A stretch of DNA of 64,000 nucleotides. Origin: Candidatus Uhrbacteria bacterium. Lineage in GTDB: Bacteria > Patescibacteriota > Patescibacteriia > JACQRZ01. Position numbers and translations under genes: made by a program. The notes below the pieces were generated by a model, which was not told where the DNA came from, made no database searches, and saw only the letters and a program-made list of their open reading frames with translations. Of this stretch, positions 47,617 through 54,592 are shown piece by piece. Within the stretch, counting starts at the first letter, position 1, and every line of letters starts with the position of its first letter. The stretch lies in assembly GCA_016206155.1 (NCBI GenBank), contig JACQSC010000004.1, positions 75,699 to 139,698 on the forward strand, given 5' to 3'.

Positions 47617-48342
47617 ATGCGTTTCCTCACTCAAAAGAAACTTTTTGTTATTAGTATCGTCATAATACTTGCGTTGCCAGAATTTGGGAATGCGCAATTG
47701 TCGTCCGATAGTTTCCGCGTGACATCTGATTCGGTCAACTGCGGCGGGGGGGGCAGTACATCAAACAGCTTTGCGATCTCCTCAACCATTTGCGAGCCCT
47801 CTGATGCGCGGACGCTTACCTCGACGAGCTTTGTTGCTGAATCGGGTTTCCAATATATGGAGGACACACCGTTCATCACCGTTTCCCTCCTTAACGCTGC
47901 GGGAAGCGCGGCAAAAAATTCGATCGCTTACGGTTCGATGACCCCGACGAGCGGAACAAAAAGTGACAGTATCCTTGTCAGGGTCACGACCAATGCCGCC
48001 AATGGATATGTTGGCTCAATACTCTCCGACGGTCTCCTTCGTACTGGGTCAAGCTCCATCGATTTTTCAATCCAAAACGTTGCGGATGGGTCGGTCGACG
48101 GGTCGGCAAACGGTTCTCCATCAGGGGAATCGGGCTTTTCGGTCTCAAGCTCTGATACCACAAATTGCACCCGCCCTTCCGGCGACCAGGGAATTGTGAC
48201 AAGCGGGACGCCATTCGCCACCTGCACCACATGGAAAACCCAATCCGACAACACACTCACTTTCAAAGCCGCTGTTTCGTCCAATAACTTGTCCGGGTCG
48301 TATTCTCAAAACCTTACAATTGTCGTTACAGGATCCTTTTGA
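47617..48342 (+). CDS. secreted Ser/Thr-rich hypothetical protein
   Basis: Signal peptide (ILALPEFGNA), 241 aa. Confidence 0.55.
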   Translation: MRFLTQKKLFVISIVIILALPEFGNAQLSSDSFRVTSDSVNCGGGGSTSNSFAISSTICEPSDARTLTSTSFVAESGFQYMEDTPFITVSLLNAAGSAAKNSIAYGSMTPTSGTKSDSILVRVTTNAANGYVGSILSDGLLRTGSSSIDFSIQNVADGSVDGSANGSPSGESGFSVSSSDTTNCTRPSGDQGIVTSGTPFATCTTWKTQSDNTLTFKAAVSSNNLSGSYSQNLTIVVTGSF

Positions 48343-51966: not shown

Positions 51967-53034
51967 TCAAAAACGTCCGCCGCTTTGCATTTCTTTAATA
52001 TGCCGCTTAAGACTGCACGCATTGCAATGATTGAGCGTGCTAAGATAGGATTGAATCGCGCTGCGCACATACGGCTCCTTCACAACTCCGGCTTTTTGTC
52101 CTTCGACCATGTGGGCGATCTTTTTCAGCACTCTCTTCTTCGTTCGTACACGAAGCACAACGTGGCATGGAAAAAGAACATAGCCAAGAAAGTCGATTCC
52201 ATGAGAAAACTTTCTCACATGTACCTTGCTTGGGTGTAACTCGAGACGAAGACGATCATCTATAAACGTGTTGATGGATGATATGAATCCAACAAGCTGC
52301 TTTTTATCATGACTTACTACCACAAAATCATCGCAATAACGAACATAGTTTGGTGCCTTAAGACTATGCTTCATGAACACGTCAAGCTCATTGAGATAGA
52401 TGTTGGCAAACAATTGGCTTGTCACATTACCGAGTGGTATGCCTTTTCCTCTTTGTCCTGCAAAACTACCGATGATTGCTTGGAGCAAGGAAAGAGTTCG
52501 CTCGTCTTTAATATGCCGCTTCAAGAGCTTCAAAAGTATTGAATGATCAACCGAATCAAAAAACCTTCGTATATCACATTTCAAAACATAGGGTATCCGC
52601 GTATTATTTTTTCCTTCCTTTCTTAAAAATACTTGCAGTCGCCGTATCGCTCGATGCGCGCCCTTACCCACGCGGCAAGAATAGGAATCAAAGATAAACG
52701 ATCGGTCAAACATTGGATACAGCGTCCGAAAAACAGCGTGATGCACAACCCTATCGCGAACAGACGCTTTATGGATATGGCGCACCTTTGGATCAACAAC
52801 GAAAAATGACGTATACTGTCCATGACGATAAGCACCTCGAACAAGCTCTTGATGGAGCGAGAAAATAGTATCCTCCAGATGGAGATCGCGGACATGTATT
52901 TCGCCTCTACTCCATTTCCCTCGCACAAATTCACGCCACGCGATAAAAAGATTTTCAAGACTTACTATCTCATCAAATAACCTATGAGTATTACCCCCCC
53001 CCCCAACGATTTCGGAACTGTTCCGGTTATTCAT
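51967..53034 (-). CDS. diversity-generating retroelement reverse transcriptase
   Basis: RT motifs YVLKCDIRRFFDSVDH, IPLGNVTSQLFANIYLNELD (the DGR-type SQ motif, in place of the group II QG...SP) and YVRYCDDFVVV (YxDD). Size 355 aa is typical of DGR RTs. Confidence 0.85.
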   Translation of the reverse strand: MNNRNSSEIVGGGGNTHRLFDEIVSLENLFIAWREFVRGKWSRGEIHVRDLHLEDTIFSLHQELVRGAYRHGQYTSFFVVDPKVRHIHKASVRDRVVHHAVFRTLYPMFDRSFIFDSYSCRVGKGAHRAIRRLQVFLRKEGKNNTRIPYVLKCDIRRFFDSVDHSILLKLLKRHIKDERTLSLLQAIIGSFAGQRGKGIPLGNVTSQLFANIYLNELDVFMKHSLKAPNYVRYCDDFVVVSHDKKQLVGFISSINTFIDDRLRLELHPSKVHVRKFSHGIDFLGYVLFPCHVVLRVRTKKRVLKKIAHMVEGQKAGVVKEPYVRSAIQSYLSTLNHCNACSLKRHIKEMQSGGRF

Positions 53035-53349
53035 AAAGCATCGGAATGGTATAAAGCCATTTATACATTCTCCTCAAAAATATCGAAAAAAGATCGCTTT
53101 GGTATTTATCTGAAAATTGAACACGGGGCGCTCGAACTGATCGACCTTCTTCTTGTCGCCGCGTTAGAAGACAAAGATAAAAAATATCTTCCCCTCCGTA
53201 ACGCGCGCCTCAAAACAGAATCATTAAAGCGGCTTATAAGAATCTGTTATGAAATAGGAGTCGTAGACCTCAAACACTATATCAACTTTGAATACCCACT
53301 TCAAGAAATATCGAAAATGATCAATGGTTGGATAAAATATCTCCGATAG
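52984..53349 (+). CDS. DGR accessory variability determinant (Avd; four-helix-bundle family)
   Basis: 121 aa with the KDRFG...L..A......KM.NGWIK pattern of Avd/TIGR02436. Encoded divergently, with 51 nt of its start region overlapping the RT start region. Confidence 0.7.
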   Translation: MSITPPPNDFGTVPVIHKASEWYKAIYTFSSKISKKDRFGIYLKIEHGALELIDLLLVAALEDKDKKYLPLRNARLKTESLKRLIRICYEIGVVDLKHYINFEYPLQEISKMINGWIKYLR

Positions 53350-53380
53350 CAAAAGAGCTCCGCGCGGAGCTCTTTCATAT

Positions 53381-53512
53381 CAAGGAGATTGCCTGGCGAG
53401 CGCGCAGATTCTCGTTCGCATTACCGGGGTTGTTCCAGTTGACGTTGAGCTTGCCGTCACTGTTCGTGTTCACGTTCGGAACATTACCGTCGCTATTGCG
53501 CGACCCAGCACA
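53381..53512 (-). repeat. DGR template repeat (TR)
   Basis: 132 nt matching the VR except at 21 positions. On the minus strand every differing TR base is an adenine. In the VR frame it is rich in AAC/AAT codons. Confidence 0.85.
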
Positions 53513-53741
53513 TGATGCATGATTCCATCCGCTATCACCGGCTGTTCTTTTTCAAAAACACCTGTGTTCTCCAAACATCTGTCTGGATTTTTTTACAAAG
53601 CATCGCGAGTTTTGTGCTCGCAAACCTTCCGTAAAATCATGCACGCAGTTTCCTTGATAACCGTAGGGCAAATCGCTATCCTGGATTGGACCGATTGTAT
53701 AAGCCATAGTGTAATGGTATACAAGCAAGAATAAAAAGCAA

Positions 53742-53769
53742 GAGACCCGAGCGTAAAACGTCGGGTCTC
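53742..53769 (-). other. GC-rich hairpin 3' of the VR (DGR hairpin/cruciform candidate), followed by a second hairpin at about 53777-53808
   Basis: GAGACCCGACGTTTTACGCTCGGGTCTC, about 55 nt beyond the target stop. Confidence 0.5.
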
Positions 53770-53821
53770 GATAGAAGTTCTTGCGCTCGCCTCCACGAAC
53801 GCAAGAAAAAAGGGGAAAGGG

Positions 53822-54592
53822 TTACAAGGAAACTGCCTGGCGAGCGCGCAGATGCACGAGCGCATCACCGGGGCGGATCCAGTGGACGCGGAGCTTGCCG
53901 TCACTGCGCGTGTCCACGCTCGGAACATTACCGTCGCTAAGGCGCGACCCAGCACACAACGTAACGTTCACCACGTCGAGGCGCTTCCCGGTTTCCCGAA
54001 AAAACGCCAAGTTGTGGATCAGGCACTCGAGTAGAGTTTCGGTCGTGATGCCGCGTTCGGCAATTTGATCCGCCGACGTGTTCTTGAGCTCCTCGTCGGC
54101 TTCAGCCCCATCACGCACCCAGATCGCGTAGGACCCATTTGAGGTGTCCCGTTCGTTCTGAATGATGACCTCGTCAAGAGATGTCTCCGTGTACTTCCAC
54201 GACCCGAACGCGGTCTTGCACTGCTGGTACGCCCCTTCAATCGTGACACCACTGGCGATCACGAGGAGCCGCCATTTGCCCTGATCGGGCTGTGGCGGGA
54301 TATTCTTCTCAGCCAGATTCACTGCGAGTCCGAATTCCTTTTCGTAAAACTCGCCCCACGGATCAAGAAGAGTTGGACTCCTCAGAAACCGCGCCATCAT
54401 GGCACGGGTGATCCTTCCGGCATCGCTCTGAGCGATTAGCTCAGCGATTTGTCCGGTCGTGATCTTCGCCATTTTTTCATCTCCTTCACCAATCCGGTAA
54501 TAAGGAAAGACATCGCGCGCTAACGCAACATCCGCTTCCGTAAACCGAAAAGGCAAACACGGCCAGAATCCCTGCTCCAGCCTTGTAACCAA
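53822..54592 (-). CDS. DGR target protein; variable C-terminal approx. 40 aa encoded by the VR
   Basis: 256 aa. The C-terminus ...CAGSRLSDGNVPSVDTRSDGKLRVHWIRPGDALVHLRARQAVSL is encoded by the VR up to the stop codon. The N-terminus may begin at an internal Met. Confidence 0.7.
   Translation of the reverse strand: MVTRLEQGFWPCLPFRFTEADVALARDVFPYYRIGEGDEKMAKITTGQIAELIAQSDAGRITRAMMARFLRSPTLLDPWGEFYEKEFGLAVNLAEKNIPPQPDQGKWRLLVIASGVTIEGAYQQCKTAFGSWKYTETSLDEVIIQNERDTSNGSYAIWVRDGAEADEELKNTSADQIAERGITTETLLECLIHNLAFFRETGKRLDVVNVTLCAGSRLSDGNVPSVDTRSDGKLRVHWIRPGDALVHLRARQAVSL
53825..53956 (-). repeat. DGR variable repeat (VR), ends at the target stop codon
   Basis: See TR. Substitutions occur only at TR adenine positions, except in the last 10 nt (IMH-like region). 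Confidence 0.85.

Follow-up and report, generated by a model that had tools for sequence, protein, structure and literature searches.

A C/G homopolymer in the antisense overlap of the avd and reverse transcriptase genes is a candidate phase-variation switch of a Patescibacteria diversity-generating retroelement

Introduction

Diversity-generating retroelements (DGRs), as known from Bordetella phage BPP-1 (gene order mtd-avd-TR-brt) and from a large clade in Patescibacteria, 'clade 2' of Roux et al. (bioRxiv 10.1101/2020.04.01.020958), carry a reverse transcriptase (RT), an accessory variability determinant (Avd) and an adenine-specific pair of template and variable repeats (TR and VR), with the VR at the 3′ end of the target gene. 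A 64,000 nt stretch of Candidatus Uhrbacteria bacterium DNA (contig JACQSC010000004.1, positions 75,699 to 139,698; here called the window) carries an element with the same components. Unlike BPP-1 and other canonical DGRs, its avd gene is inverted, lies nested between the TR and the RT gene, and overlaps the RT start, and the overlap holds a hypervariable repeat, in the window an 11 nt C/G homopolymer. This tract is probably a contingency-type simple sequence repeat, that is, a heritable and stochastic ON/OFF switch of the DGR enzymatic core. No regulatory repeat of this kind is described for BPP-1 or in the searchable DGR surveys, and full-text literature searches, which did not cover Paul et al. 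2017 (Nature Microbiology), turned up no repeat switch in a DGR.

The closest described switches are the contingency loci of Neisseria, Campylobacter, Helicobacter and Haemophilus and the pilus G-tract of Bifidobacterium breve, a documented ON/OFF switch that works by replication slippage in G10–G12 tracts (PMC9187656). These share with the present locus a G/C run of about 8–12 nt near the 5′ end of an open reading frame (ORF), a length that is polymorphic between near-identical genomes while the repeat itself is conserved across relatives, and, as proposed here, replication slippage that sets the frame ON or OFF. They differ in that the genes switched here would be an RT and its accessory protein, not a surface antigen or modification enzyme; in addition, a single tract would gate two antisense-overlapping ORFs, and the host is an uncultivated bacterium of the Patescibacteria (Candidate Phyla Radiation, CPR). 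In the hif genes of Haemophilus influenzae, repeat changes alter the spacing of the −10 and −35 elements, which is transcriptional control. The (TA)n repeat concerned lies in the overlapping divergent promoters of hifA and hifB, so that, as in the present case, one repeat co-regulates two divergent genes (mentioned in PMC9187656). In the DGR, by contrast, the repeat lies inside both coding regions and would act by frameshift, at the level of translation. Phasevarions, which are based on phase-variable DNA methyltransferases, resemble the DGR locus in that a repeat-switched gene has genome-level consequences; here the consequence would be mutagenesis of one target gene rather than a change in methylome or expression, and the likeness is an analogy only. 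Simple-repeat phase variation and DGRs are both well known, and what appears new is a repeat that would gate the DGR's own enzymes through their antisense-overlapping start regions.

Results

The homopolymer and the avd/RT overlap

The 11 nt run (C11 on the plus strand, G11 on the minus strand; a feature without strand) occupies positions 52994–53004, in the plus-strand context cctATGagtattaCCCCCCCCCCCaacgat. It lies within a 51 nt antisense overlap (52984–53034) of the 5′ coding ends of avd (plus strand, 52984–53349, ATG at 52984, 121 aa) and the RT gene (minus strand, 53034–51967, ATG at 53034, 355 aa). A preliminary description of this DNA had placed an 11 nt C/G run in the overlap, read as PPP in Avd and GGGG in RT, and this is borne out: the run is translated as Avd residues 5–7 and RT residues 11–14. 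The overlap encodes N-terminal extensions of both proteins, with predicted N-termini of the read-through ORFs MNNRNSSEIVGGGG... (RT) and MSITPPPND... (Avd). Avd residues 1–12 (MSITPPPNDFGT) precede the Avd fold, and RT residues 1–18 (MNNRNSSEIVGGGGNTHR) precede the conserved LFDEIVSLENLF core.

The run is the longest homopolymer of the window; the runners-up, of any base, are 8 nt long, and the other G/C runs reach 8 nt at most. About 0.008 G/C runs of at least 11 nt are expected in 64 kb under a first-order Markov model. The run exceeds the slippage threshold (about 7–8 nt or more for G/C) inside both ORFs, making it a candidate for slipped-strand switching. Variation of the tract in silico leaves Avd and RT both full-length at C8, C11 and C14, while C9, C10, C12 and C13 cut Avd to 16–43 aa and, simultaneously, RT to 13–23 aa. 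The earlier suggestion that a slip of one nucleotide would frameshift both genes at once thus holds in silico, as C10 and C12 truncate the two proteins together. The window, with C11, is in the predicted ON state.

A perfect palindrome with a 6 bp stem, TCGGAACTGTTCCGG, is found at 53012–53026, between the tract and the RT ATG and within both ORFs, and was classed as terminator-like by the scan. The closest relative of the window (L112) has a similar palindrome, ccggaacagttccg, and none was seen in more distant loci. The second-longest G/C run of the window, a G8 run at 47746–47753, lies about 43 codons into a 241 aa ORF (47617–48342, plus strand), and could be a second, weaker slippage site.

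Conservation of the repeat in related loci

Eighty metagenomic DGR loci with 46–55% RT identity were fetched; removal of two redundant loci, and addition of the window and one locus from the genome collection, gave a final set of 80. A simple repeat is present at the avd/RT junction in 53 of these 80 Patescibacteria loci, and 52 of the 80 carry a pure G6–G12 run in the 130 nt that precede the RT core (G6 in 2, G7 in 3, G8 in 3, G9 in 22, G10 in 13, G11 in 7 and G12 in 2). Runs of at least 8 nt number 47 in 17.8 kb of junction sequence, against two G/C runs in 356 kb of flanking sequence, and dinucleotide repeats number six at junctions against one in the same 356 kb. A control set of 80 viral-contig DGR loci (33–40% RT identity, seven loci excepted) has a junction repeat in 1/80, and this sole repeat-bearing locus has 49–51% RT identity. 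A scan of the genome-collection contigs returned only a distant Saccharibacteria DGR, which has no repeat, and a Bacillus RT (33% identity, residues 83–291).

In the Patescibacteria RT homologues, GGG sits 8–10 residues before the conserved block IFExIISLENLF, and in the protein alignment G12 is invariant and G13 conserved. The reading frame of the run differs among loci, and the third codon positions within it are all G/C, yet outside the run GGG makes up 18% of the Gly codons in RT bodies and CCC 22% of the Pro codons in Avd bodies. In six loci the G run is absent and a dinucleotide repeat takes its place at the same site, inside the Avd N-terminal extension: (GT)7–8 in L021, L051 and L060, and (GA)7–11 in L077, L078 and L084. 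L077 is in frame, and L021, L078 and L084 are out of frame. The replacement repeats encode peptides such as ERERE, LSLSL and THTHT. In two further loci (L006, L042) the run has decayed and is locked in frame.

Because six loci carry (GT)n or (GA)n instead, the conserved trait is a slippery repeat and not a G motif or a Gly/Pro peptide. A Gly/Pro peptide motif was considered and rejected on codon usage and on the replacement by other repeats, and is effectively refuted. A fixed RNA element of the TR transcript is unlikely, as the length of the run, its distance from the TR and the type of repeat all vary.

Long G/C runs were also seen away from the avd/RT junction, at L060:9 (C12, at a contig end), in L125 (G11, about 2.1 kb downstream of the RT core) and at L026:1513 (G8).

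Two-gene arrangement and frame coupling

The layout of the window recurs in 36 relatives, with overlaps of 46–116 nt. Read along the RT strand, the order is RT ATG, 22–69 nt, G run, 6–45 nt, and CAT, the last being the avd ATG as seen on the opposite strand. Each start codon is mirrored as a histidine codon of the other gene. The avd ATG is antisense to an RT His codon (GGGxxSHxIF), and the RT ATG is antisense to an Avd His codon (V-I/L-H-K). In the window, the avd ATG (52984–52986, plus strand) reads as CAT on the minus strand and encodes RT His17 (NTHRLF), and the RT ATG (53032–53034, minus strand) reads as CAT on the plus strand and encodes Avd His17 (VIHK). The Avd N-termini of the relatives follow the pattern M-x(1–14)-PP(P)-x-(V/I)(V/I)HK, and the His residue is found only in relatives that have the overlap.

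As codon boundaries coincide on both sides of the run, every length that brings one gene into frame does the same for the other. When the run was changed by −2 to +2 in silico in the 26 loci where the ATG phase of either gene is unique, RT and Avd came into frame at the same tract length in 25 (binomial p = 2e-11 against 1/3), and the coupling of the two frames under length change that is seen in the window was also present in the 36 relatives. As assembled, 6 of the 25 phase-locked loci are ON, 7 need +1/−2 and 12 need −1/+2, and a uniform distribution is not rejected (p = 0.29).

Relatives without the repeat (e.g., L065, L076) have their start codons 4–6 nt apart and lack the N-terminal extensions and both His residues, which suggests that the extensions are there to accommodate the repeat. 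In a subgroup of seven loci (L030, L040, L046, L048, L053, L063, L066) the RT ATG lies downstream of the run and avd alone reads through it. In the avd-less loci L027 and L031, and also in L035 and L023, the run lies within the RT extension alone.

L027 (2794–2982) and L031 (2781–2990) have no avd within 3 kb; the TR leads to the RT start in about 35–55 nt, and the G run is kept.

Length variation between near-identical genomes

Within protein clusters at 90% identity, members differ by GGG versus GGGG or GG versus GGG, or have frame-shifted readings upstream of the run; MNNRGIIPGGG and YEQQGHYTGGG, for instance, come from one nucleotide sequence translated with an offset of one base. Two populations, both from aquifers or groundwater, were informative at the DNA level. 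The first comprises eleven Wildermuthbacteria contigs, which derive from different groundwater samples, were built by different assemblers and are 99.3–99.97% identical over 3.3–3.9 kb; in these the tract is G9 in three contigs, G10 in four, G11 in two and G12 in one (where the scaffold has an N-gap at the run), the eleventh being L097. Three pairs of contigs differ in the run alone. The ON lengths here are G9 and G12, and the G9 contigs are the only ones with a called avd gene. Of 27 variable columns, 25 fall in the VR, one lies 32 nt past it and one is beside the run; because the variation is concentrated in the VR, the DGR appears active in this population. One VR haplotype co-occurs with G9, G10 and G11.

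In L097 (near position 870, compared with L087:1392) a C-to-G change beside the tract extends G9 to G10 while keeping the frame, with a Phe-to-Leu change in the RT extension.

In the second population (Parcubacteria/Nealsonbacteria; 99.2–99.97% identity), nine contigs carry G9 and seven carry G10. L112, the closest relative of the window (77% RT identity), has G10, which places both genes OFF; ON would need G9 or G12. To cover the window's own population, the RT, Avd and neighbouring FolD proteins were looked up by exact match, which gave only three Logan contigs, one of which (L086) ends 34 nt short of the tract at a point that matches no k-mer branch point and is uninformative.

Start codons and annotation

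In the window there is no in-frame ATG, GTG or TTG between the start ATG and the conserved core of either avd or RT, and no Shine-Dalgarno sequence was found before either ATG. The next RT start is the GTG at V37, where the NCBI annotation of the RT begins (P0001, 319 aa, from a Candidatus Uhrbacteria metagenome-assembled genome). About 20 related loci lack a start codon of any kind after the last stop in the frame of the RT core.

In L002/L085 the gene caller returned a 152 aa fragment of the intact RT ORF together with two spurious antisense ORFs. Truncated gene calls were considered as a proxy for the OFF state and rejected, since RT is called short even where its ORF is intact (L002/L085, L087). 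ON and OFF states were therefore read from the DNA and not from gene calls.

Organisation of the DGR

Avd matches Pfam bAvd over residues 18–119 (E = 4.6e-9; 37.2 bits, just under the 40-bit curated cut-off), and a hidden Markov model built from the Avd proteins of the 36 relatives recovers the Avd family. The RT matches RVT_1 (E = 1.7e-20). A search found 7741 RT homologues, thousands of which are Patescibacteria RTs beside bAvd genes and TR/VR pairs, and the annotations of the RT relatives assign them to Parcubacteria-group CPR bacteria.

A direct repeat of 132 nt with 86% identity is formed by the copies at 53381–53512 (minus strand, sense 53512→53381) and 53825–53956 (minus strand, 53956→53825). 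Mismatches fall at adenines of the first copy in 18 of 19 cases (minus strand), which identifies the first copy as the TR and the second as the VR. The VR forms the 3′ end of the target gene (53822–54592, minus strand) and encodes the C-terminus of its 256 aa product, which has no Pfam match. Its RT, its Avd, the A bias of its TR/VR pair and the position of the VR, at the target's 3′ end, mark the element as a bona fide DGR. The VR of the window is identical in L002, the sole independent assembly that spans it. The preliminary description, which called avd and RT divergent, has to be corrected in one detail: the target/VR, TR and RT are all on the minus strand, and avd is the sole inverted gene, placed between TR and RT such that the 5′ ends of avd and RT overlap.

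Between the VR and the TR (minus strand) is a non-coding spacer of about 310 nt (53513–53821) that holds a terminator-like hairpin at 53623–53603 (minus strand). A consensus promoter and terminator scan of 52600–53900 gave no more sites than shuffled sequence, and none that was usefully placed. Many relatives have a TGnTATAAT-like motif 12–21 nt upstream of the RT ATG, which is inseparable from the Avd ELYK codons on the opposite strand.

Discussion

The preliminary description considered a phase-variation switch plausible, and the comparisons made here strengthen that proposal: the repeat occurs clade-wide, its length changes between near-identical contigs in steps that are not multiples of three, the two start codons are phase-locked, and dinucleotide repeats can replace the G run. 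At the sequence level the tract is like a contingency locus in its length, frame switching, polymorphism in relatives and maintenance by selection. In the mechanism that probably applies, avd and RT would each start at the ATG on the far side of the run and be translated across it. A change of ±1 or ±2 would truncate both proteins after 13–43 residues, while a change of ±3 would merely add or remove an RT Gly and an Avd Pro, tolerated in dispensable N-terminal extensions. Slipped-strand mispairing during replication would alter tract length at high frequency, so that a population would always mix DGR-ON cells, mutagenising the target VR, with OFF cells in which the VR is frozen. The cost of hypermutation would thereby be limited while the capacity for it is kept. 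Extended to the family, the proposal becomes slightly less secure but still has the balance of probability in its favour: a large DGR clade of Patescibacteria would have a built-in repeat switch (a G/C run, (GT)n or (GA)n) at the antisense-overlapping starts of avd and RT, and its targeted hypermutation would be phase-variable.

Several observations weigh against a phase-variable DGR core. In some relatives one gene alone reads through the repeat. In the Parcubacteria/Nealsonbacteria population the ON lengths are G8 or G11, so that G9, G10 and also the G12 implied by P0024 and P0137 are all OFF for the conserved ATGs; this population has alternative TTG and GTG starts, so the OFF state may be leaky. 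The near-uniform phases of the assembled loci fit equally well with length-tolerant expression through slippage of RNA polymerase or ribosomes. Every length difference was read from a consensus assembly, and both Illumina sequencing and assembly are prone to error at G/C homopolymers; database G-tract lengths have been described as unreliable (PMC9187656). Four contigs end at the G run (L019:1, L029:1, L070:5, L115:1) and L095 has an N-gap there (about 876–897), which fits either read heterogeneity or sequencing difficulty. A check of tract length in assemblies, which had been suggested earlier, revealed variation among relatives (G9–G12 in one population, G9/G10 in the other) and none in the window's own population, as C11 is found in every available assembly, namely the window and two independent Logan assemblies that are 100% identical.

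Among the alternatives, the one that survives best, although improbable, is that the run is a recoding site at which RNA polymerase slips or ribosomes shift on GGG-G or CCC-C, a throttle keeping Avd and RT low at any DNA length. Both CCC-C and GGG-G are known to be prone to +1 shifts, and ribosomes stall at PPP. Recoding would agree with the near-uniform assembled phases, with most loci out of frame, and with a population that has only out-of-frame lengths and yet an otherwise intact DGR cassette. The commonest assembled state would need a correction of −1 nt (12/25), but this excess is not significant (p = 0.29). Transcriptional slippage, moreover, is efficient mainly on A/T runs. Against recoding, the (GT)n and (GA)n repeats at the same site are classic substrates of DNA slippage and poor ones for ribosomal or transcriptional slippage, and otherwise identical contigs differ in length at the level of DNA.

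Somewhat less probable again is that the length differences are sequencing or assembly artefacts, and that conservation of the run has a different cause, such as a role as a nucleic-acid element of the TR-RT transcript or as the spacer of embedded divergent promoters. The contig breaks and N-gap at the run and the published warning on database tracts agree with an artefact, but the spread from G9 to G12 across 10 assemblies, and a division between G9 and G10 of about 50/50 across 16, exceed the stutter expected from error. A non-coding role would suit the persistence of the run in avd-less loci, about 60 nt downstream of the TR, and the TGnTATAAT-like motif ahead of many RT ATGs. The run, however, lies anywhere from about 60 to about 400 nt away from the TR, neither the exchange for (GT)n or (GA)n nor a length range of 6–12 nt would be expected of a sequence-specific element, and a non-coding role leaves the phase-locking of two conserved ATGs (25/26 loci) unexplained. 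The interchangeable repeats, together with the variation in which gene is gated, argue against a sequence-specific RNA or DNA element, and suggest that selection favours a slippery repeat able to knock out at least one essential DGR protein.

The preliminary description also raised the possibility that one N-terminus is not translated, and that RT starts further downstream. It is very unlikely that the true starts lie beyond the run, which would place the run in a shared untranslated or promoter region and make the read-through ORFs incidental. In favour of such starts, Avd matches Pfam only from residue 18 onward and the RT core starts at residue 19, the NCBI annotation starts RT at V37, neither ATG has a Shine-Dalgarno sequence, and one subgroup of relatives has its RT ATG 3′ of the run. 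For the window, untranslated N-termini are not supported, given the conservation and phase-locking of the ATGs on both sides, their reciprocal His codons, and the many relatives with no other start for the RT core. The window itself has no start codon between the run and either core, and the next start for RT, the GTG at V37, would remove the invariant residues S25, N28, F30, A32, W33 and F36.

A chance homopolymer, or a conserved Gly-rich/Pro-rich linker with no role at the nucleotide level, is scarcely credible, for although GGG and PPP are plausible flexible linkers and G12 and G13 are conserved, the expected count of such runs is 0.008, the codons of the run are unlike those elsewhere in the two genes, its frame differs among loci, and ERERE, LSLSL or THTHT can substitute for it.

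A phase-variable DGR core would bear on the control of DGR activity. Retrohoming that goes unchecked should be costly, since it keeps destroying working variants of the target protein. If the proposal is true, such a regulatory mechanism would be described here for the first time in DGRs, and it could account for the many metagenomic DGRs that look inactive, as well as for RT and avd genes that are often mis-annotated or called frameshifted. At these loci RT and avd are truncated, split or missed by gene callers and by the Prokaryotic Genome Annotation Pipeline (PGAP), and because of this DGR surveys may misjudge the completeness or activity of cassettes in this clade. The idea can be tested with existing metagenomic reads, with time series (ON fraction against VR turnover) and with simple reporter constructs. 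The locus also presents a compact design principle: with each of two antisense start codons mirrored as a His codon, both genes can be gated by a single repeat. If the switch operates as proposed, each lineage would be a mixture of diversifying cells and cells with a frozen VR, a form of bet-hedging on mutability itself.

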